A program made the translations under genes and the position numbers. A DNA stretch of 64,000 nt, taken from contig NC_061776.1 in assembly GCF_022458985.1 (NCBI RefSeq), positions 8,322,591 through 8,386,590 on the forward strand. Direction: 5' to 3'. Source of the DNA: Mugil cephalus. Lineage: Eukaryota. Shown one piece after another: positions 50,507 to 64,000 of this stretch. The notes under the pieces were generated by a model. It did no database searches and was not told where the DNA came from. It worked only from the letters and a program-made list of their open reading frames with translations. The first letter of the stretch is position 1; each line of letters begins with the position of its first letter.

Positions 50507-50870
50507 GCTTTTATTCACAAGTATATAAGTCGAGTCAAGATAATTCATAATAATTTAAGACGAATCAAGTCGAGTCAAGATAATTCATAATAATTTAAGA
50601 CGAATCAAGTCGAGTCAAGATAATTCAAGATCATTTAAGACAAGTCAAATCAAGCCAAGATGAGTTCAAGATCATTTAAGACGAGTCAAGTCGAGTCAAG
50701 ATCATTTAAGACGAATCAAGTCGAGTCAAGATAATTCATAATAATTTAAGACGAATCAAGTCGAGTCAAGATAATTCAAAAATAATTTAAGACGAGTCAA
50801 GTCGAGTCAAGATAATTCAATATCATTTAAGACAAGTCAAGTCGAGCCAAGATGAGTTCAAGATCATTTA
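50507..50870. repeat. Minisatellite, about 43-bp unit x about 8
   Basis: The unit taagacgaatcaagtcgagtcaagataattcataataattt repeats with variants in the tep1 3' flank. Confidence 0.9.
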
Positions 50871-50899
50871 ACAGGTTGGATAAATCGAGTCTAGTGCCA

Positions 50900-51431
50900 A
50901 ATATAATAGTAAGATAACTAAGATAAAACGAGATTAGACGTACGTTTATTAACCCCCAAATGATCGTCTATTGTTCTAAAAAAAAATAATAATAAATTAC
51001 AAATATACTAAATGGAAATAATTCGGACTTCTCCGAGCAGATCTTGAACGCAGCACAAGACTGATCTGATCAGCTCCCAGGTGAGTTAGCCACGCCCCTG
51101 GACCGCGGCGTACACAGGTAAGGGAAACAGAACTGGACCTACCAGTTTGTAAAAAGCAGGAGCTGCAGGAGTGTCCGCTTTAAGAAAATCCAGATCTGCT
51201 GTGGGAAGAGTCCAACCTCCTTTTTTTTTTTTTTTTTTTTCCAACAGAGGTGGAGATAGGAGCTTGAACTGCACAGTCCTGGCGAGTGAAAACAACCGAG
51301 AGTATCATCAACACAGGGAGGATTCAAACTCTCACCGAAGATTGGAACACTTATAACTACATTTATATTTATATACTATTAACGTCGGGATAATTTAACA
51401 TTAAACTAGCTACAGAGCAGCTGGCTCAATG
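50900..51431 (+). promoter_or_regulatory. Candidate promoter and first-exon region of the downstream micro-exon gene
   Basis: GC box ccacgcccc (51099-51107). Two copies of the donor-like GTGAGTTAGC are present, at cccag|GTGAGTTAGC (51081) and caATG|GTGAGTTAGC (51432). The second places an ATG (51429-51431) exactly at an exon end. Confidence 0.3.
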
Positions 51432-51544
51432 GTGAGTTAGCAATTTAAAAAAAAAAAAAAAAAAGCCGGCTGCAATGGCGAATGTGTTTTGAAATAGACG
51501 CGAAGTTAGAATTAACATACATTTATTAATTTATCTCTTGACAG

Positions 51545-51598
51545 GATCGGTACGATAACCTGGATTTGGATTTGGAATGTGAGGGAGGAGGTGTCTCT
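51545..51598 (+). CDS. Candidate exon 2 of the micro-exon gene
   Basis: tctcttgacag|GAT...TCT|GTGAGT, 54 bp, phase 0-0, encodes DRYDNLDLDLECEGGGVS. Joining it to the ATG-terminated exon gives M-DRYDNL... No homology support. Confidence 0.3.
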
Positions 51599-52647
51599 GT
51601 GAGTAACTTTACCAACTTTAACGCTTTGAGAGTTTGTTGTGAACCGGACCTTATCTCATGCTGTGCAGCTGAAACCTACTATAATGTAATTAAATGTACA
51701 GTGTGGTGCACATGTTCGTGGAGAAGTTTCACCTTTGTTGCCATTGTAGCGCAATGGAGTTGACTTTAACGTGAAGCAGTGACATTCAGCTTTAGTGAAC
51801 ACGGCCGGATAAATTTTCTAGGTTGCTCCGGGGTTAAAATGCGTCTAAGGGGCCCCTCAAACCCCCCCACAGCAAATTACATTTATATGATTAAATTATA
51901 AGACGTAATTTATTTATTACGAAGCTTATGAAGATACAGTACCTTCCAGATTCTGTACACACTTTAAACTCTCTGCTAAAAACATTTAACAATTCGTCTA
52001 TTTCTGGCACAATGCTGCCTTTAATAGGAACCGGTGAACTTGTGGTTACATCACTGGGCTTGGACACCGCTCGTAAACTCTTTTGTCGAGCATTACGAGG
52101 CTGTTTAATGCCAGCGTGTTTACCTCATTCACCTGTAAATTCCACACGAACTCCAACGTCTTGTGGTATTCTCAACCTTGTAACTGGAAAATTTCAGCAA
52201 GGTCCTAGTTAATGTTTTCAGGAATAGCAAAGATGAGTGGAAAGTTGTAAGATATGTGTGGTATAGAATGGTCTTCGGTACTAAACAAGGGCCCCCAACA
52301 AGATGCAATGCACAAAATTAATTATTAAACAGATACTTATGCTACCTTTGCCTCTTAACGCAAAAAAAAATGTAGTATTAATTTATTATTAACTCCTTTT
52401 ATGTAATATTTTAACGTGAAAATAAATTTCAAGTTTCAAGTCCGGTCGCTGAAACCAGATCCAGGTCATGGAATTCCAACATGAAGCCGGACTTTGAGTT
52501 GTGAACTAGAAAATACTCTGTTGCATCCTTAAAATTAAATAACTTTGTTGTTATAGAGGAGCATCTTTTTTTCCTCTTCAGTCCAGTAGTATGTGTTTGA
52601 GATGCATATTGGTTCCAATAAAATGTCTGTCTTCATTCCTCAAACAG

Positions 52648-52719
52648 CAAAAAGCAGCAATATTCGGCGGGATGTTCAAGAGATCATCCAAGGTTGTAGA
52701 ACCATCCGTCCAAGCACAG
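52648..52719 (+). CDS. Micro-exon A (basic GGMF class)
   Basis: caaacag|...CAG|GTGACA, 72 bp, QKAAIFGGMFKRSSKVVEPSVQAQ. Confidence 0.6.
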
Positions 52720-52915
52720 GTGACATTGTGGTTTTAATATGAGAACTTTCTTAATTTTTAAGCTAAAAATGAGCAGCTAGAGTTAATAGAATCTCATCGA
52801 CTGTCCTCTGTTTCTTTTGCTTTCGATACAACCATGCACCGTTCAGCAACAATGGATTTACAGCTCTGGATTCTGCATATATTCACAGAGACGTTTTTAT
52901 GTTTATGTTTTACAG

Positions 52916-52984
52916 GACAGTTTATCAGTCAGCAGTGAACTTTCAAAGAGCGACGACAGTCTGACTGACAACAACAACACCAAG
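52916..52984 (+). CDS. Micro-exon B (acidic Ser class)
   Basis: gttttacag|...AAG|GTGAGA, 69 bp, DSLSVSSELSKSDDSLTDNNNTK. Confidence 0.65.
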
Positions 52985-53099
52985 GTGAGACATTATTTCT
53001 GAGGGTTTTTTTTTAACCATTTCTGATGAAGTGGGAAAATATCGTCACAACAAATCTGTGTTTTCTGCATCTTGACTGACACGTTTCTTGATATTTCAG

Positions 53100-53168
53100 G
53101 ACAAAGGAGGAGTCTTCAAAGGGATGTTTAAGAAGACGTCCAAATCTGCCAAAGAGGGTCAACCACAG
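53100..53168 (+). CDS. Micro-exon C (basic GMF class)
   Basis: atatttcag|...CAG|GTTTGT, 69 bp, DKGGVFKGMFKKTSKSAKEGQPQ. Confidence 0.65.
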
Positions 53169-53360
53169 GTTTGTAACGACGTCTCAAATTTACAGTCCTT
53201 TTAATTAATACATGTATTCGAGTTGCTGCTATCAACTCATTATACGTAGCAGATTATGATCTCTGCCTACAAAAGTTAGAAATACAAGCCAAGACAAAAG
53301 TAAACTAAAGCAACTTGAGGTCGAAGCTCTAAAAATCTCCCCCGGGTCACCCGTTAAACA

Positions 53361-53540
53361 TGTCTGACAAGTCCGCATCTTTTCAAACAGGATCCAGTAC
53401 ACAAAGTTTTGATGTGAGTAAAAATATTTTGGCGGTTCCGGCATTTCGAGAGCCAGAAGTTGATTTATATTTAAGAGCTTTTGAACAAATAATCTCAGCA
53501 CTCGACTGGCCAAGAGACATGTGGCCTGTTATTCGCTGAG
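53361..53540 (+). mobile_element. Possible retroelement Gag-like ORF fragment (intronic)
   Basis: A 59-codon ORF MSDKSASFQTGSSTQSFDVSKNILAVPAFREPEVDLYLRAFEQIISALDWPRDMWPVIR*. The ..P.F...VD.YL.AFE.I....W....W.. pattern resembles N-terminal Gag-like domains of LTR-retroelement-derived genes. No other retroelement parts were seen. Confidence 0.25.
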
Positions 53541-53877
53541 CTGATGGGAATAATCCCAAGAGTGTGCCCTTTTTGTTAGAAGACAGTATGATGTGTTAAC
53601 CTCCTGAGACCCTGCATTCTCATATGGGGACATCAAGTTTTAGGTTTTACTGCAGCTTGTTCTGCTTCATTTAAACCTGTTGTCCTCGTCAGTGGACACT
53701 TTAGTGAACGCCATCTAGTGATAGCAAAGGGTCAATGCAGATTTATGTTGGACACGTCCTGTCTTCTGTTCTGTCCTTATTGTCAGTCTTTGCTTGTTTT
53801 GGAGTGCTTTCTTTTTATTTTGGCCATTTTTGTTCATCTACTTATTTGTTATTTTTTATTTATTTTATTTTTTTTAG

Positions 53878-53992
53878 CTAAAGTTAGCCATACCGCCGCT
53901 AGTTAGCCGTCCCGCCGCTAGCTAACGTTAGCCTCCCGCCGCTAGCTAACGTTAGCCATCCCGCCGCTAGCTAACGTTAGCCTCCCGTGAAA
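53878..53992. repeat. Minisatellite, 27-28-bp unit x 4, with palindromic core
   Basis: cccgccgctagctaacgttagcc(a/t)(t/c) repeats 4 times. The core gctagctaacgttagc is a near-perfect palindrome. Confidence 0.9.
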
Positions 53993-55046
53993 GTGGGACG
54001 AGGAACAAAGCTCCATCAAATTCTACGATTAAAATGTATTTGCTTATGCTCATTAACATTTCTAGTTTGATATGACCCGCAAATTTAACAACTTTTTATC
54101 AATAGCAATGAGCTACAGCGTCGCTATTTAGCAAGTACTCATTTGAGGATGTTGGGACTTCATTGTCATTTCACAGCAATTTTCAGGTATTAAAATAAAC
54201 AGTTTTATAGTTTGTCACACATTAGAGACTTTATTATAATATAAATAATGAAATGATCCCAGCGTCCACATATAAGAAGATTGTTTTTTCAAAAACTACC
54301 ACTTCCTGTTGAAAGATGATGCTTTGTTTTTATACTTGTTAGGTCCCACTGATTCCAAGTAGTTTGGAAAAATTAAAAATGCAAAGCAAACAAAAGCTCA
54401 CGTTTCAGAAGGTTAAACAAAAGGCCAAATTTTAGAAAAGGTTGGCTGAACTATTTCCTTGTGTTGTAAATACAATTAATGGAAACAGATGAATCATTTA
54501 TGAGATTAATAACTACTTAACATTGACCTGTGTGCGTTATGTAACACGTGCATCCAATCAGTCACTCAAATTTTATTTGTATAGCTTTTTGCAATAACCA
54601 AATGCTACCCAGAGTGCTTTACATCAAAGCCATAAAACAAGACATTACCTGCTTTAAGTTGTGTTTAGTTTCAGTAAACTTTCCTCATTTTATTTATATA
54701 CATTTATTTTTATATTATTTTTGTGTTGTACATTAATAAAATCACACATCTGTTTCCACCTGTGTTTTAATTACATTGTTAAATTATTTACATCTTCTCT
54801 GTGCATATTTTCTTTTTTTCCTCTAAGGGTTTTTTTTATTCATAATTGTTATTTAAATGTCTGTGTATATATGTGTGCCTTTAAGCCGGAGATCTCTGCA
54901 AAATTATGTTATGTTCTCATAGTAACAATAAATGGTAAATGGACTCGCTTTTATATATCGCTTTTCTACCTACTCAAAGGTACACTAAAGGAATCTTGAT
55001 TCTTAAAACAACTGATATTATTATTATTATTATTGTGTGTTAACAG

Positions 55047-55118
55047 ACCAGCCTCTCGTTGCAAAATCCTGAGCTGTCTGCCAGTAGTGACAGCTTAACA
55101 GACAACAAGCCATCCAAG
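55047..55118 (+). CDS. Micro-exon D (acidic)
   Basis: gttaacag|...AAG|GTCAGT, 72 bp, TSLSLQNPELSASSDSLTDNKPSK. Confidence 0.65.
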
Positions 55119-55197
55119 GTCAGTTCACTTTCTTCTCTCTGATGTATATGTGAGTTTTCCTACTTACTCACTAAAGCCTTTTCTGTTTTCTCTTCAG

Positions 55198-55269
55198 GAG
55201 AAATCAGGTATGTTGGGGGGGATACTGAAACGACCTCCAAGACCAGGACCCGTCCGGAGGCCGTCACAG
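55198..55269 (+). CDS. Micro-exon E (basic GML/GIL variant)
   Basis: tctcttcag|...CAG|GTGAAG, 72 bp, EKSGMLGGILKRPPRPGPVRRPSQ. Confidence 0.65.
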
Positions 55270-55360
55270 GTGAAGCTTAGTCCTCCACCACCCACATAAT
55301 GAAATGTCCGAACCGAATACATCCAGTAAAAAGTCTGACAGATGATATTGTGTTCCTCAG

Positions 55361-55417
55361 GATCTACTGGAGGTGTCGGGCGTTAACGAGGGTCCGTCAG
55401 AGAACGGCAACGCGACG
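55361..55417 (+). CDS. Micro-exon F
   Basis: gttcctcag|...ACG|GTGAGT, 57 bp, DLLEVSGVNEGPSENGNAT. Confidence 0.6.
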
Positions 55418-56357
55418 GTGAGTCCCTGCATCAATTCAAGAAAAGTTATTTTTACTCCACACAAAAAAACACACACACACATACATATATATTTATATAT
55501 ACACATATATATGTATATATTATGCATAAATTGTCCATCTGTTTGTCACATGATTTTTTTGGTTATTCTGTACAATAAATAATAATTGTTTCTTATCTGT
55601 TATATATTTGCCCCACACATAAAACCATGTGCGTATCTGTTTGTGGGGGGATTTTGTGGATGAGGAAATCAGGCACAGTAAAAATGTTACATAATTTGGG
55701 AAGAGGAATAAAGAGATGATTAGGAATAGGTACAGGAATGAAGAAGAGGTGTGTCAGCCACTTTAAATATTATTATTATTTAGCAGAGAAGAAGATTAAT
55801 ATTGACAAGGGGTGGAGCCAGATACGTGTGATGTTTCCCTCCGCTCTTCATCAAACATTACCAGTAACTTATGTTACTTATATAAGTATTTTTATTTTTC
55901 TGTCTTTTGTTTCTTTTTCTCTACAGATAATCGTCATGATTATTTTATTATCAACATATTTACATCTTTTCTACTAAGACAAATCTCTACCTGAGCAACG
56001 CTGTGTTCAGATGTTGTTGTCTTACACTGTGTTTTTATTCGATCAGATTATCATTTACACATACGAATGGTAAAATCTCATAAAAGAATACATCACTGAG
56101 GGCTTAGTCAGCGGCCTACACCATGTTGTTGACCCGCAGTGGCTGAGTTGAGCTCTGCTCTCTCAGTTTTTGTTTTTGTGTGTGTGTGTGTGTTTGGACA
56201 AGTGGAAACATGCGTGCATCAGCTGTTTGGAAGAAGGGCTGATGAGAAGGAAATGTGCGAACCGCTATAATCCCTGTCTGTGCATCAGGCAGCTGCAAAA
56301 TACAAAGGACATGTTTAGTATTTTATTTTACTCAATAGTCATTTTTTTAATCTCCAG

Positions 56358-56429
56358 GAGTCAGGAGGGATGTTCAGTGGGATGTTTAAAAAGTCTCCAA
56401 AACCCTCTGGAGCGAGGGCTCAGTCTAAG
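56358..56429 (+). CDS. Micro-exon G (basic)
   Basis: atctccag|...AAG|GTATTT, 72 bp, ESGGMFSGMFKKSPKPSGARAQSK. Confidence 0.7.
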
Positions 56430-56505
56430 GTATTTAACTATCCACACTTTTACATGTGTCTGCATGTAAACCAGCTCATAACAGGCTTCTGTTTCTCCCC
56501 TTCAG

Positions 56506-56574
56506 GAGGATTTGTCTGCACCCAGCAAGCTCTCAGGCAGCAGCGACAGCCTTTCTGAGAACAGCAACACTAAG
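56506..56574 (+). CDS. Micro-exon H (acidic)
   Basis: ctccccttcag|...AAG|GTAAAA, 69 bp, EDLSAPSKLSGSSDSLSENSNTK. Confidence 0.7.
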
Positions 56575-56704
56575 GTAAAAACTGTCATGTCCATCAGTGT
56601 ATAACCAAACATCCACATTTAAAACATCCACATTAATCCTCCACTTCTTTAGAGTTGTTTTCCAAACGTAGTTTTAATTTAATGTGACTCGTTCTCTTCG
56701 GGAG

Positions 56705-56764
56705 TCGGGAGGGAAGTTCAGTGGGATGTTTAAAAAGCTCTCAGGAGCCAAGACACAATCACAG
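56705..56764 (+). CDS. Micro-exon I (basic), with shifted acceptor
   Basis: The ancestral acceptor (tctccag in paralogue G) is mutated to tcttcgg here. An in-frame AG two codons downstream (gggag|TCG) gives SGGKFSGMFKKLSGAKTQSQ, followed by CAG|GTAAGA. Confidence 0.5.
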
Positions 56765-56841
56765 GTAAGAGGTTTATAATCTTTGCACCTTGTTAACATA
56801 TGAGCACGCGAATAATATTAACGAGTGGACAATCGTTTCAG

Positions 56842-56898
56842 GATGATTTGTCTGCATCCGGTGAGCTCTCAGGCAGCAGCGAACAGCTTTCTGAGAAG
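56842..56898 (+). CDS. Micro-exon J (acidic)
   Basis: cgtttcag|...AAG|GTGAGA, 57 bp, DDLSASGELSGSSEQLSEK. Confidence 0.7.
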
Positions 56899-57096
56899 GT
56901 GAGATTTATTTCAGAATCAGGAAAGACTTTATTGCCAAGTATATTTGTACATACAGTGAATTTGTCTTGGCGCTGGTTGCATAAAAAATATGAAGAAAGA
57001 TGAGATAAAATAAAATAATATATATCGTAAACAGGACAAAATAAATCTTTAATGAGGAAATCGTCATGAATGCTGATTCCATATTATTTTCTCAGG

Positions 57097-57156
57097 AGAA
57101 AGGAGGAATGTTTGGTGGTATGTTCAAAAAGAAAGTTGCCAAATCTCAGTCTCAGG
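57097..57156 (+). CDS. Micro-exon K (basic)
   Basis: ttttctcag|...CAG|GTAAGA, 60 bp, EKGGMFGGMFKKKVAKSQSQ. Confidence 0.7.
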
Positions 57157-58240
57157 TAAGATGCTTGTGGTCGTCAATCGTCAGTGGCTGTGTTTCCAAA
57201 ATAAAAGCCTTATTTATGAAATTTCAAGCACAATTGCACTTTGTTTTTAGTTTTTTTTTTTTTTTTAATTCCCTTAAACAGTTTGTAGGTTTTCAGTCTT
57301 GCTCTGGGTCATGATATTTATTTTAGGTAGGTTTTTAATCCCAGTGGGTCTCCAATATTCCATGGATGAATCCGCCGTAGCATCATTCGCTGAGTTTCCA
57401 TTACAGTTTTTCCACAAAATAAAAGCAACGTTTATGAAATTTTGATGAGGTACAATTGCGAATGAGGTGTAACTCTGGTAAAGTTTCACCGGATCCCATA
57501 ATTCTCTTAAATTCTCGTCACTTTGAGAAAGATGAACTATAAATGAAGTGGTCACATGACCCCCTGCGCCATCTCCGATGATGTGTTTCCACTGCACTTT
57601 TATGATAAACTTTATGATAAACAGACATAATGATGTTTTTTTTTAAAAAATGTTCTATTTAAGTGTCACAGGATATTTTCAAGGCAACTTAGATCTACAG
57701 GTCTCCATCTCAGGGACACTATGAATACCCTCTGAAAGAAACGTTGCTTATTGACGTCAACAGTGAATAATGTGCTGATAAATATAACCTCTGTGTGCAA
57801 AGTAGCACCTGCTTCATGTTCACTGAGGAACAGGGAAGGTGGTTAAGGTTCCTCTTCGTTCTGGCATTGTGAGATAATTGCAGTATTTCCCTTTATACTT
57901 CGTTATTTCCACGAACTGCCTCCTCAGTTGGCATTTTGAAGTGACACTGAGCAGAAAGAAGAAGTATATTGATATGATGTTAATGCAGATATACAATAAA
58001 ACACACACAACAACAAAAAAAAAGTGGCTTCACTCTTCAGAATCAGATGGGGTTTAAAATACTTTGTTCCGGTTTCCAGATACAGTAGATAGTAGTTTTT
58101 TGTTTTTTTTTTCTTGTATCCCCACACTGGTCTGGTGCTGGGTTTATTTGTGATGGTGATTAGCTGATTTCAAAATAAAACACTTGAGTCTTTTCTTATC
58201 GTAGTTGGTTCTGACTCTGTGCTGTTTTCCTGTGTGTTAG

Positions 58241-58306
58241 GATGATTTGTCCGTGGACAGTGAACTCTCATCCAGCAGCGACAATCTGACAGAAAAGTCT
58301 TCAAAG
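58241..58306 (+). CDS. Micro-exon L (acidic)
   Basis: gtgtgttag|...AAG|GTGAGT, 66 bp, DDLSVDSELSSSSDNLTEKSSK. Confidence 0.7.
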
Positions 58307-58405
58307 GTGAGTTGTAATCCCGCCTCTTGTCTTTACTGTCATCACATCAGCACATCAGTTATTCCTAAATTGAAAATCTAACCTTTACCCTTGTTGTATT
58401 CTCAG

Positions 58406-58456
58406 GGTGGAGTGACAGCGAAGATCCTGAAGAATCCTTTCACCTCCTCGTCTCAG
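58406..58456 (+). CDS. Micro-exon M (NPF)
   Basis: tattctcag|...CAG|GTTATT, 51 bp, GGVTAKILKNPFTSSSQ. Confidence 0.6.
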
Positions 58457-58741
58457 GTTATTTTTCTTTATCAGTGAACGCTGCGTCATATCACATACTC
58501 TAATTATGTTATAGCTCCTGTTTATAATCACATTTAAGGCTCAAATCCATCTGTATAAATTATGTTAATTAGGGGCGGGTATTGGCAAAGACTGTATCAC
58601 GATACTTGAGTCACGATACGATACGTTATTGCGATATATTGACATATTGGCATTATATTGTTAAGTTGCATTTCGTTGCTCTCTACCTGTACCTGTGTAA
58701 TGACAATAAAGTTTAAACTAATCTAATTTTTATTCTATCAG

Positions 58742-58807
58742 GAGAAGGGAAAGACTGAAGACACAAATGAGAATAGCTCCTCAGCAGAGAAGCCCAAATC
58801 CAAACAG
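58742..58807 (+). CDS. Micro-exon N
   Basis: ttattctatcag|...CAG|GTTGGT, 66 bp, EKGKTEDTNENSSSAEKPKSKQ. Confidence 0.6.
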
Positions 58808-58927
58808 GTTGGTCGTCCCACCAAAGTTACTAAAATCCGGTTGTTTAAAAAAATAAATAAATAAAAACATGTTCAAACATATTAGCTGTCTGGAAATAGC
58901 ATCTGAAACAAAACAATTTTTTTTCAG

Positions 58928-58975
58928 AACGGTTTCAGTGCAGTGATGAAGAGCACGTTCTACCCTGACAAACAG
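58928..58975 (+). CDS. Micro-exon O
   Basis: ttttttttcag|...CAG|GTAATT, 48 bp, NGFSAVMKSTFYPDKQ. Confidence 0.6.
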
Positions 58976-59077
58976 GTAATTACAGGTTGTTATTTCTCAT
59001 CGCCCTATGAAAAGGAGAAACGTCAAGTACACAAATATATGTTATTTGTTTTTCACTAAAATGAGTTTGTTTTGCAG

Positions 59078-59149
59078 GAGAAAAGCTCCAACACCGATGA
59101 CAATGAGGAGCCATCAGACAACGGAGACAGTCAGGCCAATCACAAACAG
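59078..59149 (+). CDS. Micro-exon P (acidic)
   Basis: gttttgcag|...CAG|GTTTGT, 72 bp, EKSSNTDDNEEPSDNGDSQANHKQ. Confidence 0.65.
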
Positions 59150-59228
59150 GTTTGTAACGTGTTTTATTGTGTGTTTTCACATCGTTATGATTTCTGATTG
59201 TCTTCTTCTTCTTTTGTCACATAATCAG

Positions 59229-59282
59229 AGTAAACTGGCCGGAGCGATGACGAAGCTGAATCCATTTAGAGCCGCAAACAAA
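59229..59282 (+). CDS. Micro-exon Q (KLNPFR class)
   Basis: ataatcag|...AAA|GTAAGG, 54 bp, SKLAGAMTKLNPFRAANK. Confidence 0.7.
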
Positions 59283-59379
59283 GTAAGGAATGCTTTAAGA
59301 AAGGATAAATATTAAACAATATATATATAAATTAATTCAATCCGTCTGTCTCATAATGATTTCCATCTCCTCTGCTCAG

Positions 59380-59451
59380 TATGAGAAACAGGGCGACTCA
59401 GATGACGAGGATCCACCTGTGAGCAGCGAGAAGTCTTCAGGTCACAAACAG
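59380..59451 (+). CDS. Micro-exon R (acidic)
   Basis: ctctgctcag|...CAG|GTGCTT, 72 bp, YEKQGDSDDEDPPVSSEKSSGHKQ. Confidence 0.65.
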
Positions 59452-61029
59452 GTGCTTTTATATTCACTTCCTCTTTTTTTTCCACTGCGTTTGACGTAAA
59501 TCATTTCACATTTAACTGGTTATTTTTATTCTTTTTTTTTTTTTTTTTAACCGCATGTTCACCAGCTGCCTGCATGTTTTTGTTCACGTTGGGTAGAAAC
59601 CAACAGCAAATCGCCACGACCAGAATAAACAGTTATATGCGATTAATCAAGGCGGTCAGTGATGGTGCGTTCAATGTGTACTCAGTAGTCGGAATTTCAG
59701 AGTTCCGAGTTGGAATTTTCAACTGGAACGTCGTAGAATCCTCACTACCTCCCCTATAGATATATGACTACCCCCAAGTTGAGTTTCCAAGATGGCCGCC
59801 CGGTGTGAACACAATAATTAGAAGCTCGTGTAATATTACATTATTATCACTTCTGATTAGTTTTGCTGCATTAAATCAGTCGTACAGACGGTATTTTTCC
59901 ACACACGCACGCTGAAATGCTGTTAGAGCGTATGTTTTTTAATGTGTTACATGGGAACTACAAAGCAATGTTGTGCTAACAACGGCTTAAAACAACAGAC
60001 TGGTAAAACCAAAACATCGCAAAACACCATTGTGACAAACTGAAATTAAATTAAACAATCAAAACTTCTTTTATTTTCTTTTTTTTTAACTGAAATAAAG
60101 AAAAAAAAATACATCCAAAATGGGTTAACAGCATCTGACATTGTCAAATTAAGTAAATTGAATAATATGAGGAGAGACGGAGGATATATGAGAATATACA
60201 CAACACTCAGAGTAGTCAAGTGCAAACTAAAGATAAGAAACACAACCCAATGAATAAAATCAGAGAGATCTACAGAAATACATATTATAACATGACACTT
60301 ATATCAGAATCCACATTTAAGTCTTTAAGGTGTAGAGAGTCTAATGTGAGCATTAAAATGACCGGGAGCTGGATAATTAGGATCAGCACGTCTGATGGAA
60401 CCCACCGTGGGTAGAAAAAGGAGAGTTCTTCCCAGGCCATGTCTGTTAACTTGTCCTGCCTGGTCTTGTTGAGATATATATTGATGTAACCTCGTGAGAA
60501 ACAGCAGAATTTCAAATATGTGTAATCAGCTTCTGGCGCTGACTTGTTAGAAAGAGGTCAAAATCCAAATCTACACTCAATTACTGAAGGAGGAAATCTT
60601 GACAGAGAAAGAAATGGTAAAATGCTTGGAAAATAATTCAGAATTAGAAAACCTTCCAATGTGAATCATGTCAAACTGAGCTGTCTTAGGAGATGTGTCC
60701 AAATATCAGATGGAATCCAATGAACCTGAGATATTTGACTAATTGTTATTAGTTCAATGTCATTTCATGTATATACGTGTATATATCAAAGAAAAATCTG
60801 ATGTAAATGAAATTATGTGTGTAAATTCATATGAATGCCAATAAATATTTGGTTTAAAAAAAAATACAAAACAGCATACATAGAAAAGAGTAGATTGTAT
60901 AAAAGATAAATAAGGAAATTATTATTATGAAAGTATTGGCACATATACAACAAATATTGAATTGCACAGATAATTAAACAGTCTTATGGTGAAATTTTCA
61001 TGATATCAGCAGTGGCTGATCAGGAGTGG

Positions 61030-61460
61030 TTAATTACATGCTCCCTGTGAATACCGAACTGATGGAGAGATTAAGTAGGGACCCCCTATCTACTATATGT
61101 GTTCTATATTAAACTCGACCTACTGCTATTTATCAATATACATTATTATTATAATCATCATTTTTCATTCAATATTAAGCTGTTCAAATAATACACAGGT
61201 TCAAATATTATTTTTTTTTTTTAAATTTCAAACATGGGAGACTGAACACGATCAAATATGCAGACTCGTGATTGGCTCAGCAGTGATAAGGGCGGGGCCT
61301 ACTGTGTACAGGAGGACCCGCCTCCATTTATCCCTTTATTAAAATATGTTGGATTCATGTTGAAGTGTATTTAAAGAATTTTGAATTTGTGTAGGAAAAT
61401 AAAAAAAAAAATATATATATAAAAACTGTCTAATCAACCAAAGATTTTACAACCCCCCCT
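61030..61460. repeat. Repeat family C copy (with about 150-bp internal insertion) in the micro-exon gene intron
   Basis: ..ctgatggagagattaagtag..ctatttat.aatatacattattattat..ttactaaaatatgttggattcatgtt..caaccaaagattttac.accccccc is collinear with 7860-8165. Confidence 0.8.
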
Positions 61461-61505
61461 CCCCGCATGTTTTAAATCTTCCTTCCGATGTGTCCTCCCT
61501 CTCAG

Positions 61506-61559
61506 AACGCCATGGCCGGAGCCATGTCCAAACTCAATCCATTCCGCTCTGCAAACAAA
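61506..61559 (+). CDS. Micro-exon S (KLNPFR class, paralogue of Q)
   Basis: ctccctctcag|...AAA|GTAAAT, 54 bp, NAMAGAMSKLNPFRSANK. Confidence 0.7.
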
Positions 61560-61763
61560 GTAAATACACTGTTAAGACTGTTTGGTGGTGGAGGTTGTGG
61601 TGAAGCCAGACAGTCAGTGGTGATGGGAGCATGAGACTGGTGACGGTGGGTGGTGGGTGGTGGGTGGTGACGTTCGATTTCTGCAAAAACTTTATGTCTT
61701 TATGTTAAAAAGCATTTGCTGCACAGGTTATCTACTTAACTTTATGTATTGTCACTTGTCCAG

Positions 61764-61829
61764 AAAGACACTGACGACACCGAGACACTCAAGGAGAATG
61801 AGAAAAAAGTGGAAGAGAAGCCAAAACCG
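61764..61829 (+). CDS. Micro-exon T
   Basis: cttgtccag|...CCG|GTCAGT, 66 bp, KDTDDTETLKENEKKVEEKPKP. Confidence 0.6.
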
Positions 61830-62045
61830 GTCAGTCTATTTATTGCATCACTCATGAGTCATCAGTGACCGCACACATATACACACACACACACACACAC
61901 ATAAACACACAAACAGCTGATCAACTTCTGTCAAAAATACCCCTCTCCTCTCACGCTCCTCCTCTTCCTCAACTCCACCACATCCTCCTCCTTTTGTGCC
62001 TGCTTCTTCTAAAAACCTCCCCGTCCTCCCGCTCCGGCGCACTGA

Positions 62046-62096
62046 CTGTCTCCGTGTGTGTCTCCGTGTGTGTCTCCGTGGGTGTCTCCGTGTGTG
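62046..62096. repeat. 12-bp tandem repeat (tctccgtgtgtg)x4, with adjacent (CA)n at 61876-61905
   Basis: Direct repeats sit immediately 5' of the micro-exon U acceptor. Confidence 0.85.
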
Positions 62097-62108
62097 TGTC
62101 CTCGTCAG

Positions 62109-62177
62109 GTCAAAAGTAACATGAGCCAGCCGGAAAGGAAGGAAACGCCACCGGTTCCACGCAGACCGACCCAAGAG
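62109..62177 (+). CDS. Micro-exon U (Pro-rich)
   Basis: tcctcgtcag|...GAG|GTTCGC, 69 bp, VKSNMSQPERKETPPVPRRPTQE. Confidence 0.6.
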
Positions 62178-62261
62178 GTTCGCCAGCAGCAAACACGAAT
62201 AACTAACTAACTAACTGCTCAGTGACGTGTGGTCTGATTGTGTTTGCTTGTTATATCGCAG

Positions 62262-62321
62262 GAGATGAAGGGGACGGCCACGTACGACAAAGTCAGATCA
62301 AGGAGAACCGAGGACAGTAAG
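62262..62321 (+). CDS. Micro-exon V
   Basis: ttatatcgcag|...AAG|GTACAG, 60 bp, EMKGTATYDKVRSRRTEDSK. Confidence 0.6.
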
Positions 62322-62473
62322 GTACAGTTGTCAGATTTCTGTCGGTGTATCCCTGCTGTCCAGTTTCATTTTTAATGAAAGAGGCTTGTTTCTGAGATTA
62401 AATCTGATACACGTTGAAAAGAATCACATGATTTAGGGTTTTGTAACTACTATTTATATTCTGTCCCGTGCAG

Positions 62474-62536
62474 GATGTCGCCCCCAAAGAGAAGAAAGAG
62501 AAACCAACAGCAGTTCCCGTGGTTTCCTTGGAGGAG
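62474..62536 (+). CDS. Micro-exon W
   Basis: ctgtcccgtgcag|...GAG|GTGAGC, 63 bp, DVAPKEKKEKPTAVPVVSLEE. Confidence 0.65.
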
Positions 62537-62627
62537 GTGAGCCGCCTGTGTTCAGGGTCCGGTTGTGACAGTTAAGATGTGTTTTGAGCCTTTCGTGGTT
62601 TAGGAAACTGATGTGGTTTGGTTTCAG

Positions 62628-62684
62628 GACATGAACAAAACTACAAGACATGATGTGAAAAAGCAGAAGAACAACAACCACCAG
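62628..62684 (+). CDS. Micro-exon X
   Basis: ggtttcag|...CAG|GTATTG, 57 bp, DMNKTTRHDVKKQKNNNHQ. Confidence 0.6.
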
Positions 62685-62949
62685 GTATTGACACATTTCC
62701 TTATATCAAGGACAAATATTAGAGTTTGATTATCAGCCCTCTGCAATGATGAAAGAAGTTTCTTTCTGACTGTGGTTATAATTATTATTCTTATTACAGT
62801 TAGAACTGCTCCTCCAGTAAAAGTGTGTTTAACTTGTTACTTTTTTTTGGATGCTTTAATTCCGTGTATAAACTAGCGCTGTCCAACATGAACCTTAATC
62901 AGATGTGATGAGGGAAGGTGAAGCATCATCTCTGTGTTTACGCCTTTAG

Positions 62950-63800
62950 TCTGAGGGTACGCACTGACGTCACTGCCACCTGAGGCCACGCCCCCTGTGT
63001 GGCATAAACATGGTGAAATTTATCGGTAAATACAGCGAGACCAGGAAAAATGTGGATTATCAAATCAAATTAAGGACAATTTAACTCAACAATGATCCAT
63101 ATGAACTACTATGGATTTGGAAAATTGGATTAGCCTCATTTTCCGTTAGTTTCGGTTAGTTTTAGGTCATTTCAGTTATGATAAATGTAGCTAAATAAAA
63201 GATGCTAACGCTAGCGGAGATTTACTGAGAAGTAACATTAGCCACACAAGTTAATGTAGCGTCTGACTGGACGTTAAAAGGACGACGAGGAGTGATCGCA
63301 AATATTCAGTTTATTGTTTCATTGTTATTTATCGTTGCAACTAAAATAGTTACTGTCGGCCGTAACTACACCAAAACAACAACAACCACAAACTTAACTG
63401 ACAGCCCTGTCGAACGGAACTTAAGAAGTAACTTAAGTATGACTTCATCAAAACAACACAGCATAAATTAATATTACCCGACACTAAATGTGAACCACAA
63501 CACCAGGTTTTGGTGCTTAGATTCCGGTTGTTTCTTCGTAATGCAGCGATCCATTCACTTCTCTTTTATTTGTCAGTCGGAGATTTCAGTAAAAATATAT
63601 CTCTGACTGCTTTTCAAATCTCTTGGTGCAGTCAATCGTTCAACAGCTCTTCTTCTTTATTTATTTCTTTTAATTAATTTTACAATTTAGACACTATTAA
63701 AGCCTATGATTTTATTAATCTCCACGATAAACCGTCACTTTTTATCGCTCGGTGCCGTAACCATGGAGACTTCGCGGACTGTGACGTCACGTACATACTC
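62950..63800. repeat. Repeat family B, copy 4 (longest, about 850 bp)
   Basis: Same orientation as, and collinear with, 22757-23420. It starts gtcactgccacctgaggccacgccccctgtgtggcataaacatggtgaaatttatcgg and ends near ..accatggagacttcgcggactgtgacgtcacg. Confidence 0.85.
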
Positions 63801-63873
63801 TCTATAAGAGCTACTCTGATTTCAAACAGTTTCCAGTAGAAATAAATAATGATTGAATTTGCTGCGATTCCAG

Positions 63874-63939
63874 TCAGATGATGAAGGACTCAAGGAAGAT
63901 GAATCTGCCGATGAGACGAACCCTCTAGAGAACAAAACA
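63874..63939 (+). CDS. Micro-exon Y
   Basis: gcgattccag|...ACA|GTAAGT, 66 bp, SDDEGLKEDESADETNPLENKT. The gene continues beyond the window end. Confidence 0.6.
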
Positions 63940-64000
63940 GTAAGTTTTTTTAAGGATTCATTATTAACTCTGAGGTTTAGTTTGAGCTGCAGAAGCTGTT

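Follow-up and report, generated by a model that had tools for sequence, protein, structure and literature searches.

The locus downstream of tep1 in Mugil cephalus raises the question of what is encoded by a long series of very short exons. The window analyzed here is a 64,000 nt stretch of contig NC_061776.1 (positions 8,322,591 to 8,386,590, forward strand). From the sequence alone, it had been predicted to contain an uncharacterised gene of at least 25 frame-neutral micro-exons that matched no named family. All 25 of these exons (A-Y) were found at the predicted positions (Table 1). Each is 48-72 nt in length and a multiple of 3, and each is bounded by an AG acceptor with a pyrimidine-rich upstream tract and a GT donor. 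On the 5' side, the array is preceded by an ATG with a GT donor directly after it and by one in-frame exon. The window therefore contains the first 27 coding exons, which together encode approximately 550 residues of the protein N-terminus; the spliced query peptide from these exons was 531 aa.

Table 1. Exons of the micro-exon gene in the window.
Feature	Position	Strand	Evidence and remarks
Start codon ATG, final 3 bases of exon 1	51429..51431	+	GTGAGT donor after; orthologues begin MDRY..; transcript L001 reads ..ATG/GAGCGGTAC
Exon 2, DRYDNLDLDLECEGGGVS, N-terminal and acidic, without signal peptide	51545..51598	+	89% nt identity to L001, block ends = exon ends; conserved in orthologues
A, basic unit QKAAIFGGMFKRSSKVVEPSVQAQ, 72 nt	52648..52719	+	Splice sites, L001, orthologues; orthologous 24-aa unit skipped in Anabas isoforms
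B, acidic-Ser unit, 69 nt	52916..52984	+	Splice sites, L001, DNA repeat family, orthologues
C, basic unit DKGGVFKGMFKK.., 69 nt	53100..53168	+	Splice sites, L001, DNA repeat family, orthologues; orthologous 23-aa unit skipped in Anabas isoforms
D, acidic-Ser unit, 72 nt	55047..55118	+	Splice sites, L001, orthologues
E, variant basic unit EKSGMLGGILKRPPRPGPVRRPSQ, 72 nt	55198..55269	+	Splice sites, L001, orthologues
F, degenerate acidic unit DLLEVSGVNEGPSENGNAT, 57 nt	55361..55417	+	Splice sites; only DLL start conserved in orthologues; no tblastn match
G, basic unit ESGGMFSGMFKKSPKPSGARAQSK, 72 nt	56358..56429	+	Splice sites, L001, DNA repeat family, orthologues
H, acidic-Ser unit, 69 nt	56506..56574	+	Splice sites, L001, DNA repeat family, orthologues
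I, basic unit SGGKFSGMFKK.., 60 nt, weak acceptor	56705..56764	+	Splice sites; 91% identity to G across 43 nt
J, acidic-Ser unit copied from H, 57 nt	56842..56898	+	Splice sites; 85% identity to H across 61 nt
K, basic unit EKGGMFGGMFKKKVAKSQSQ, 60 nt	57096..57155	+	Splice sites, L001, orthologues
L, acidic-Ser unit DDLSVDSELSSSSDNLTEKSSK, 66 nt	58241..58306	+	Splice sites, L001, orthologues
M, NPF unit GGVTAKILKNPFTSSSQ, 51 nt, missing from L001	58406..58456	+	Splice sites, tblastn; 51-nt orthologous exon in tarpon
N, mixed-charge spacer, 66 nt	58742..58807	+	Splice sites, L001, orthologues
O, NGFSAVMKSTFYPDKQ, 48 nt, corresponds in position to tarpon NGVMNGLLSPFRLSAQ	58928..58975	+	Splice sites, L001, orthologues, tarpon gene
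P, acidic spacer, 72 nt	59078..59149	+	Splice sites, orthologues, tblastn
Q, NPF unit SKLAGAMTKLNPFRAANK, 54 nt	59229..59282	+	Splice sites, L001, orthologues; orthologous 18-aa unit skipped in medaka isoforms
R, acidic spacer, 72 nt	59380..59451	+	Splice sites, L001, orthologues
S, best-conserved NPF unit NAMAGAMSKLNPFRSANK, 54 nt	61506..61559	+	Splice sites, L001, orthologues; 54-nt orthologous exon in tarpon
T, Lys/Glu-rich spacer, 66 nt	61764..61829	+	Splice sites, L001, orthologues
U, unit with a conserved Pro-rich motif, VKSN..ETPPVPRRPTQE, 69 nt	62109..62177	+	Splice sites, orthologues, tblastn
V, 60 nt	62262..62321	+	Splice sites, orthologues, tblastn
W, second proline-rich unit, degenerate in this fish, 63 nt	62474..62536	+	Splice sites, orthologues, tblastn
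X, 57 nt	62628..62684	+	Splice sites, orthologues, tblastn
Y, SDDEGLKEDES.., 66 nt, gene runs on past window	63874..63939	+	Splice sites, orthologues, tblastn

Evidence for genuine exons

Exons were predicted to end invariably on Gln or Lys, but only 20 of the 25 do so (F and Y end on Thr, T on Pro, U and W on Glu). This bias follows from the part of the 5' splice consensus that lies within the exon (CAG/GT or AAG/GT), and exon starts (GAx or GGx) are likewise set by splice consensus. The region was also said to lack ORFs longer than 60 aa; such ORFs are present (e.g. 59007-59315, 102 aa), though spurious. A scan for the bare pattern (AG..GT, stop-free, a multiple of 3, 48-72 nt, pyrimidine tract) showed it to be no commoner than chance, with 32 non-overlapping candidates here; other 12.6-kb segments of the window contain 23-40, and the opposite strand contains 19. 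The exons are considered genuine not because of this pattern alone, but because of a spliced transcript, purifying selection and the gene structure of tarpon. First, L001, a 1747-nt intronless transcript contig from a different, related fish (exon identity to the window approximately 80-89%), matches the window only in blocks that end at exon ends. Second, dN/dS is 0.20 over 352 codons, which indicates purifying selection on the array. Third, the tarpon orthologue has the same architecture of one phase-0 exon per unit: it contains 21 phase-0 exons in succession, each 48-93 nt in length. The initial 13 (72/69/72/66/72/69/72/66/51/78/48/69/54 nt) encode one unit apiece, and the ApoL domain is in a final 816-nt segment. 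When ten orthologues were compared to the window using tblastn, 25 of the 26 exons downstream of the ATG exon were matched and no further exons were found in the window. Exon F, the unmatched one, thus has weaker support, while exon I is the least secure because of its weak acceptor (G at -3) and GGKF core.

The exons might instead be chance pseudo-exons in a tep1 intron or 3' UTR, as the equal frequency of the bare pattern elsewhere in the window and a tilapia model (P0072) in which ApoL is joined to the C-terminal propeller of TEP1 would allow. This is refuted by the exon-by-exon alignment of L001 (which carries its own 5' UTR and ATG), by dN/dS and by the tarpon gene structure; TEP1 and ApoL are also called as separate genes in two species. 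The probability of this explanation is negligible.

Gene identity

Although no family had been named for this gene, a protein search identified it. The spliced peptide matches 120 teleost proteins (E-values: 1e-157 to 1e-4) of 600-1200 aa, which are mostly named "apolipoprotein L1" and nearly all of which carry a C-terminal PF05461 domain. With a shad orthologue as query, 285 proteins were matched at E ≤ 1e-20; among the 120 matches listed, all are teleost and all contain PF05461. More than 100 orthologous models, the closest full-length ones among them, run uninterrupted from the same MDRY.. start through these units into an ApoL domain. Upstream on the same strand are TROVE, DUF4062 and TEP1 beta-propeller exons, and an ApoL gene follows TEP1 in tarpon and mandarin fish as well; the position directly 3' of tep1 is conserved. 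The last, large exon of orthologues encodes the helical membrane domain (ApoL); in M. cephalus it lies past the 3' end of the window, and is linked to these exons via orthologues and synteny. Based on these sequence comparisons, 51429-63939 (+) is identified as the 5' part of the teleost ApoL-domain gene (NCBI/Ensembl: apolipoprotein L1 or, in a name derived from zebrafish, "Apolipoprotein L, 1"), directly downstream of tep1. We are highly confident that the array encodes the N-terminal tail of an ApoL protein, built from one-unit phase-0 micro-exons. The original prediction was thus right about a spliced, modular micro-exon gene, but not about one that is free-standing and unnameable. Nor is the gene missed by annotation, as had been expected for ORF-based methods: eukaryotic pipelines have produced hundreds of fish models with many isoforms.

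A separate gene for a stand-alone disordered endocytic scaffold is very unlikely. The window holds no folded domain, L001 retains the intron that follows exon T and ends there (leaving a 517-aa ORF without ApoL) and a few database models lack ApoL (P0003-5, P0015, P0020). However, these database entries are short or partial, more than 100 orthologous models continue into ApoL, and tarpon genomic DNA joins the units to this domain. A tail-only isoform of the ApoL gene may exist.

Of known genes, teleost apol1 (zebrafish ENSDARG00000007425) is most similar, sharing the best matches (E-values to 1e-157), the MDRY.. start, the unit order, the position after tep1 and, in tarpon, the micro-exon structure. 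No cyprinid is among the matches listed. The zebrafish apol1 of functional studies was described as a 2.6-kb locus, and an N-terminal tail of repeats goes unmentioned in these papers (PMC4492502, PMC4854397). At the C-terminus, the orthologues carry a domain of the same Pfam family (PF05461) as mammalian APOL1-6 and APOLD1. No mammalian counterpart of the micro-exon tail is among the 20 identified matches of the module profile described below. Mammalian APOLs are 280-430 aa in length.

Unit classes and the two-exon module

The three predicted unit classes hold. Basic units (A, C, E, G, I and K; consensus [ED]KGG[MV]FxG[MV]FKK.., net charge approximately +4) are paired with acidic Ser-rich units (B, D, H, J and L, with F a degenerate member; consensus [ED]DLSxxSELSxSxDSL[ST][ED].., net charge approximately -4). 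These are followed by NPF units (M, Q and S; G-x-[MIL]-x-K-[LIM]-NPF) and charged spacers. Basic and NPF units align in one register by profile comparison (P = 1.6e-4), at an hhalign probability of only 50%. As had been proposed, a basic and an acidic exon together make up a two-exon module of 47 aa with a history of tandem duplication, as shown by DNA repeats, module alignment and the tarpon exons. DNA repeat families join G/I/K/C/E/A and H/J/L/B, and the exons of pairs G-H and I-J are 85-91% identical at a spacing of approximately 340 nt; exon I is possibly a decaying copy of G.

An alignment of 18 modules gave the consensus EKGGxFSGMFKKSPKP..QDxLSxxSELSASNDSLxxNxNTK. When its profile was searched against 1.84 billion proteins, 99 matches were found at E ≤ 1e-3, with up to 16 copies per protein. 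Nineteen of the 20 identified matches are teleost proteins (the exception being a partial low-complexity nematode match), and all seven that were Pfam-scanned carry ApoL. Tandem or paralogous ApoL genes of teleosts (apold1a, si:cabz01007802.1 and si:rp71-1g18.13 types) share this module in up to 16 copies ahead of a C-terminal ApoL domain, but are located elsewhere and are longer (1100-1700 aa). In one of these types, every unit is a fusion of basic core and NPF (GMFKGMMQKVNPFK), whereas most basic units here have lost NPF/KPF; relatives have a KPF after the basic core, which has been lost in this fish (KPSG).

Genes such as titin (PEVK), collagens, SCPP genes and schistosome micro-exon genes also encode each peptide unit in a single short, symmetric exon, and modular phase-0 arrays of this kind grow by tandem exon duplication and vary by cassette skipping. 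They are unrelated in sequence and biology, while here the repeat is a two-exon unit of opposite charges joined to ApoL. SCPP-type genes are likewise built of phase-0 exons, and the short exons, Ser/Asp-rich units and pipeline names of this family ("starmaker-like", "dentin sialophosphoprotein", "DMP1-like") could indicate a secreted acidic phosphoprotein of the SCPP/starmaker/DSPP type. This is less probable still than a stand-alone gene: the N-terminus (MDRYDNLDLDLECEGGG) lacks a signal peptide, the protein runs on into ApoL, the module profile matches ApoL proteins only (among identified matches), and NPF motifs act in the cytosol.

Disorder and isoforms

The tail is predicted to be intrinsically disordered and signal-peptide-less. 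In the AlphaFold2 model of the closest full-length orthologue, residues 1-559 have pLDDT values of 31-48 and no secondary structure, with helices beginning at residue 560, in agreement with the disordered product originally proposed. The tail is 77% disorder-promoting residues (mean hydropathy -1.25). The GGMF units have an unremarkable hydrophobic moment (0.48), and AlphaFold predicts no helix in them. Predicted isoforms from Anabas and medaka are distinguished by whole units of 18-24 aa, exactly one at a time, which supports the predicted exon skipping.

NPF motifs and possible function

NPF motifs are ligands of EH domains. Three are present in the tail versus 0.05 expected, a 60-fold excess reached in only 2 of 100000 shuffles. 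GAMSKLNPFRSA.K is kept from elopomorphs to this fish, one paralogue has seven GMFxGMMQKVNPFK units, and in an additional NPF that directly precedes the ApoL domain, the Asn is invariant and P/F are retained in at least 90% of 30 orthologues. This enrichment and conservation make EH-domain recruitment by the tail plausible. The EH domains of EHD proteins favour NPF with acidic flanks (PMC13282721), and the flanking residues here (R/T/S/A/K) argue against this class. The same paper lists EHD partners. Membrane or adaptor proteins with repeated NPF motifs (SCAMP1-3, epsin, Rabenosyn-5, EHBP1 and MICAL-L1) offer a functional analogy, having several NPFs in a disordered cytosolic region joined to a membrane-bound part, but they share no sequence homology, and flanks are acidic in EHD1 partners versus basic or neutral here.

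The tail could instead be an entropic spacer or bulk polyampholyte without specific ligands, its recurrent residues reflecting splice-site or exonic-enhancer constraint and recent duplication. The consensus-derived exon ends, the varying copy number among close relatives, the decaying appearance of I-J, the low-complexity sequence (net charge -1, alternating +4/-4 blocks) and the absence of AlphaFold structure all fit. We consider this unlikely, given the low dN/dS, the NPF excess and conservation, or the mid-exon cores (GMFxGMFKK, ELSxSxDSL and KLNPFRSA) kept between elopomorph and percomorph orthologues and in the paralogue family.

The gene itself is real, ordinary and already predicted in databases, while its disordered tail is undescribed in the literature searched. 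The proposed roles as an endocytic scaffold and membrane-binding effector are suggested by motifs, and a motif of three residues has little predictive value when the protein is of low complexity. APOLs without a signal peptide are found on the cytosolic face of membranes (PMC8557400). In the proposed mechanism, the ApoL domain would anchor the protein in a membrane with the tail on the cytosolic side. There, the conserved NPF motifs might recruit EH-domain proteins, although we hold this at somewhat below even confidence; their basic or neutral flanks would fit the Eps15/intersectin class better than EHD1-4. More tentatively, weak binding to acidic membranes may be contributed by the units rich in Met, Phe and Lys. 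Their Lys pairs amid Phe and Ser (FSGMFKKS) resemble the MARCKS effector sequence FSFKKSF, but with far lower charge density (+4 per 24 residues), Gly/Met-rich composition and no myristoylation signal. Equally tentatively, phosphorylation of the acidic Ser-rich units could tune tail binding, or these units could drive charge-block self-association. Because all exons are frame-neutral, copies of these units can be gained by duplication or lost by cassette skipping without harm to the ApoL domain.

The micro-exon array

Positions 51400-64000 were read and all AG..GT-bounded, stop-free segments with a length divisible by three were tabulated. All 25 predicted micro-exons (A-Y) were located, each 48-72 nt in length and a multiple of three, with an AG acceptor preceded by a pyrimidine-rich tract and a GT donor; the introns between them range from 76 to 2054 nt. 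The ATG is the final codon of exon 1 (CTCAATG/GTGAGT). Alignment of the window with the 5' UTR of L001 (a transcript contig from a related fish) gave no convincing match that would define the start of exon 1. The original prediction that every exon ends in Gln or Lys is correct for 20 of the 25 exons and fails for the remaining five. These ends, like the Glu, Asp and Gly starts, are explained by the exonic part of the splice consensus (CAG/GT, AAG/GT, AG/G). It had also been stated that the region contains no ORF longer than 60 aa; such ORFs do occur, though they are spurious.

Table. Features of the window (window-relative coordinates)
Feature	Position	Strand	Description
ORF of 215 aa	12938-13585	-	start MGTRASR.., 13-histidine run, Gly/Ser run; no Pfam match
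TEP1 (telomerase-associated protein 1) gene exons	23576-47500	+	ORFs with matches to TROVE at 23.6 kb, to DUF4062 at 25.2 kb and to TEP1 beta-propellers at 41.6 kb
40-nt tandem repeat	50527-50871		satellite-like; 8.8 copies, 84% matches
ATG	51429-51431		end of exon 1
Exon 2	51545-51598	+	in frame with the ATG; encodes DRYDNLDLDLECEGGGVS
Exons A-Y	52648-63939	+	25 micro-exons
25-nt tandem repeat	53882-53987		GTTAGCCTCCCGCCGCTAGCTAAC, 3.5 copies, in the 1.9-kb intron C-D
Exon I with acceptor region	56695-56764		core GGKF, not GGMF
(CA)n microsatellite and 12-nt repeat	61872-62101		12-nt unit TGTCTCCGTGTG, 4.6 copies
Exon U	62109-62177		proline-rich motif copy 1, intact (ETPPVPRRPTQE)
Exon W	62474-62536		proline-rich motif copy 2, degenerate

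The predicted unit classes hold: A, C, E, G, I and K are basic, B, D, H, J, L and, less clearly, F are acidic and Ser-rich, and M, Q and S carry NPF. DNA repeat families tie together exons of like class, linking the basic exons to each other and, separately, the acidic exons. The proposed duplication of a basic-acidic pair is borne out by G-H and I-J, in which the exons are 85-91% identical, the spacing is approximately 340 nt and the introns can be aligned only weakly; a two-exon segment was thus duplicated in tandem, and not very recently. The CAG that serves sister exon G as acceptor reads CGG in exon I, and therefore the following AG (with G at -3) must act as acceptor. The I-J pair may be a copy that is decaying or seldom included. 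The orthologues contain one or two copies of a conserved proline-rich motif, E[TM]PPxP[PR]RP[TS].EE, whose PxxPxR pattern resembles that of SH3 ligands; exons U and W carry the copies in the window.

Several other repeats were observed. The 40-nt repeat lies between tep1 and the array, approximately 560 nt 5' of the ATG. The TGTCTCCGTGTG array ends 7 nt before the acceptor of exon U and, because of this proximity, variation in its length might alter exon U splicing. The 215-aa minus-strand ORF has the appearance of an initial coding exon belonging to an unrelated gene.

Evidence for transcription and conservation of the exons

The bare splice-like pattern is at background level and is uninformative as a significance test: 32 non-overlapping candidates were counted here, while the opposite strand has 19 and other stretches of 12.6 kb within the window have 23-40. 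Transcript evidence comes from L001, a 1747-nt intronless contig assembled from public run SRR28040489 (Logan), which encodes a 517-aa protein with 60% identity to the spliced peptide. This contig aligns to the window only in short blocks, whose ends fall within a few bases of those of exons 2, A-E, G-L, N, O and Q-T. It has no counterpart of exon M and reads into the intron 3' of exon T, giving a 517-aa ORF that lacks an ApoL domain. When ten orthologous proteins were compared to the window using tblastn, 25 of the 26 exons following the ATG exon were matched and no other sites were found; the exon missed was F, which is too diverged, with only its DLL start kept. Over 352 codons aligned between the window and L001, dS was 0.68, dN 0.14 and dN/dS 0.20; in this alignment, two of the repeats probably face copies that are not their orthologues, by which dN can only have been inflated.

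Exon order and frame were also checked at an orthologous locus in tarpon (Megalops atlanticus), which branched off early among teleosts and is the one species in which the exons were mapped on genomic DNA. After a first exon ending in ATG come 21 AG/GT exons in a row, 48-93 nt long, none of which splits a codon. Of these, the first 13 (72/69/72/66/72/69/72/66/51/78/48/69/54 nt) each encode one unit in the same class order, and the ApoL domain is in a final 816-nt segment approximately 8 kb beyond the first of them. The absence of this order or frame in orthologous loci would have counted against the array, but the tarpon gene keeps both. Readings of these segments as chance pseudo-exons or as UTR or intron of tep1 were rejected.

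Identity of the gene

The spliced 531-aa peptide matched at least 120 proteins (E-values from 1e-157 to 1e-4), all from teleosts and mostly 600-930 aa in length. The best of these (1e-157 to 1e-100) covered 60-100% of the query, and the N-terminal region could be matched exon by exon, in the same unit order, in 11 species. Nearly all of the matches carry PF05461 (ApoL) at the C-terminus, confirmed by hmmscan in three, and the domain is C-terminal in all full-length orthologues. Although the gene was originally not matched to a named family, most matches are named "apolipoprotein L1" (NCBI) or "Apolipoprotein L, 1" (UniProt/Ensembl). A second search, with a shad orthologue as query, found 285 proteins at E ≤ 1e-20; the best 120 of these belong to many teleost orders, often with up to 13 or more isoforms. 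The family is thus widely predicted by eukaryotic pipelines, contrary to the expectation that annotation would miss it. No cyprinid or zebrafish long form was found among the matches listed in either search.

A Pfam scan of the spliced window peptide found no ApoL domain and nothing else significant (RxLR was sub-threshold, E-value: 0.29); the window stops at 64000, within the gene. The array had been placed 3' of tep1 and this is correct: ORFs with TEP1 domains lie upstream at 23.6-43.6 kb on the same strand, and the order TEP1-then-ApoL recurs in tarpon and mandarin fish (Siniperca). Based on the teleost ApoL matches and the position after tep1, we conclude that the window contains the 5' part of a teleost apol1-type gene whose ApoL exon would lie past 64000. 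This exon is expected to follow a KK.K..NPFMPR exon and to read ..WWNTVE.WED..FAVTA.KVQKGIRVFNKLF.. Downstream of the apol1-type gene, tarpon (locus L002, 22300-29476) and mandarin fish (locus L003, 32311-35643) both have another long gene in the same orientation. In tarpon it encodes a 1128-aa ApoL protein, and this second gene is probably a tandem paralogue with the same module.

Automatic names within the family are inconsistent (titin homolog, piccolo, starmaker-like, DSPP, midasin-like, KAT6B, WASH complex subunit 2), which illustrates how the low-complexity tail misleads naming. A secreted acidic phosphoprotein of the SCPP, starmaker or DSPP kind was considered and rejected, as there is no signal peptide and the N-terminus (MDRYDNLDLDLECEGGGVS) is acidic and lacks any hydrophobic stretch. 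Symmetric unit exons are a structural likeness shared with titin PEVK, collagens, SCPP genes and schistosome micro-exon genes, none of which is homologous to the tail.

The two-exon module

The module of one basic and one acidic exon has a 47-aa consensus, EKGGxFSGMFKKSPKP..QDxLSxxSELSASNDSLxxNxNTK, and is recognisable in tarpon, salmonids, Mugil cephalus and one paralogous gene family. A profile of it had only 99 matches at E ≤ 1e-3 among 1.84 billion representative proteins. Of the 20 matches that were identified, 19 are from teleosts, and all seven that were scanned with Pfam have an ApoL domain; they include paralogues of the apold1a and si:rp71-1g18.13 types, which carry 12-16 copies. The sole exception is a nematode protein that matches in the Gly/Met/Phe core only and is taken to be low-complexity noise. 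As far as seen among the matches identified, the conserved tail appears to be teleost-restricted.

Net charge alternates between approximately +4 and -4 from exon to exon, and the whole tail is near neutral. The Met/Phe/Lys cores of the basic units might bind acidic membranes weakly. However, their hydrophobic moment does not stand out, the GGMF units are not set apart when ranked by it, and helices are not predicted. The basic units had been likened to membrane-binding effector domains, but they do not form the dense basic cluster with aromatics between that marks a MARCKS-like domain (a net charge of +3 to +5 in 20-24 residues that include two Phe and two Met), and the N-terminus lacks a MARCKS-type myristoylation signal, beginning MD.. 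and not MG. The acidic units contain many S-x-x-D/E sites, which are of the casein-kinase type, and could serve in charge tuning or in self-association of charge blocks.

NPF motifs and candidate partners

The original prediction drew attention to the NPF motifs, and they do appear to be meaningful: three are observed versus 0.05 expected (at least three arose in 2 of 100000 shuffles), and they are conserved among orthologues. Their settings are NPFTSSS, NPFRAANK and NPFRSANK. The sequence GAMSKLNPFRSA.K is almost invariant from elopomorphs to Mugil cephalus, and KLNPFRSA is kept from Megalops and Synaphobranchus to percomorphs. A further NPF lies outside the window, directly before the ApoL domain; among 30 orthologues the Asn never varies, and at least 90% of them keep the Pro and Phe.

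Three observations point to a common origin of the basic and NPF exons. First, in one paralogue family an NPF follows every basic core (GMFKGMMQKVNPFK, seven copies). Second, the basic unit of close relatives of Mugil cephalus reads ..GMFKKSPKPFG.., with KPF at this place. Third, profile-profile comparison aligned the two classes in the core-plus-NPF register (P=1.6e-4, probability 50%). Descent of both classes from one "hydrophobic/basic core + NPF" exon is suggestive rather than proven.

EH domains act in the cytosol. The setting of the motifs fits that of EH ligands, in that the region is predicted to be disordered in an orthologue and there is no signal peptide; for the latter reason, the tail should be cytosolic. 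Human APOLs without a signal peptide have a cytosolic location (PMC8557400). The EH domains of EHD1-4 favour NPF followed by acidic residues (PMC13282721). Here NPF is followed directly by R, T, S, A or K and, because these are not acidic, the Eps15/intersectin/REPS class would be the likelier partner if the motifs are used. The nearest functional analogy is with the NPF arrays of membrane proteins and adaptors such as SCAMPs, epsins, Rabenosyn-5 and EHBP1, which have no homology to the ApoL tail.

Disorder and isoforms

A disordered product had been suggested, and AlphaFold2 modelling of the closest full-length orthologue (P0002) with a 30-sequence alignment agrees: residues 1-559 are predicted with pLDDT 31-48 and no secondary structure, and helices are predicted from residue 560 on. 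Exon skipping is likewise consistent with predicted isoforms (gene models, not reads) that differ by exactly one unit. The units skipped in Anabas are 24 and 23 aa long and correspond to exons A and C, while those skipped in medaka are an NPF unit of 18 aa and a spacer of 23 aa; the lack of exon M in L001 agrees with this pattern. The isoform sets also show single-Gln NAGNAG variants. L001 has three G-H-type modules versus G-H and the weaker I-J copy in Mugil cephalus, and thus copy number shifts between near relatives. Five database models (P0003-5, P0015 and P0020) lack the ApoL domain, and a tail-only isoform arising by intron retention is possible.

Taking these features together, we tentatively propose, while considering it rather unlikely to be correct, that an ApoL membrane protein gained its exon-modular disordered tail (ancestral unit "amphipathic GMFxGMFKK core + NPF") in teleosts and would thereby be a multivalent membrane adaptor of Eps15/intersectin-type EH networks, its valency tuned by tissue-specific cassette skipping and by lineage-specific duplication of the (+4/-4) module.

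Implications

An apparent orphan is thus assigned to a named gene, the apol1-type ApoL gene adjoining tep1. The gene belongs to a family that is known and widely predicted, and no description of its conserved tail was found in the literature searched (apolipoprotein L in teleosts or its N-terminus, apold1a, micro-exons and tandem exon duplication). The founding papers on zebrafish apol1 describe a 2.6-kb locus and limit discussion to APOL-like domains (PMC4492502, PMC4854397), and reviews of APOL evolution, in which APOLD1 is regarded as the ancestral form, do not mention a tail in fish (PMC8557400). Compared with their mammalian counterparts, ApoL proteins of fish are two- to fourfold longer, and the surplus is a conserved, exon-modular, NPF-bearing tail, predicted to be disordered, that is not in Pfam. 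The 47-aa module profile could be used to mend the chaotic naming of the family. The locus also offers a clean natural case of a charge-alternating two-exon module that grows by duplication and shrinks by skipping. Kidney research uses zebrafish apol1 in place of human APOL1. With a conserved cytosolic tail that bears trafficking motifs, the fish protein would be wired differently; should zebrafish apol1 carry such an unannotated 5' extension, the morpholino and CRISPR designs already published would have to be reassessed.
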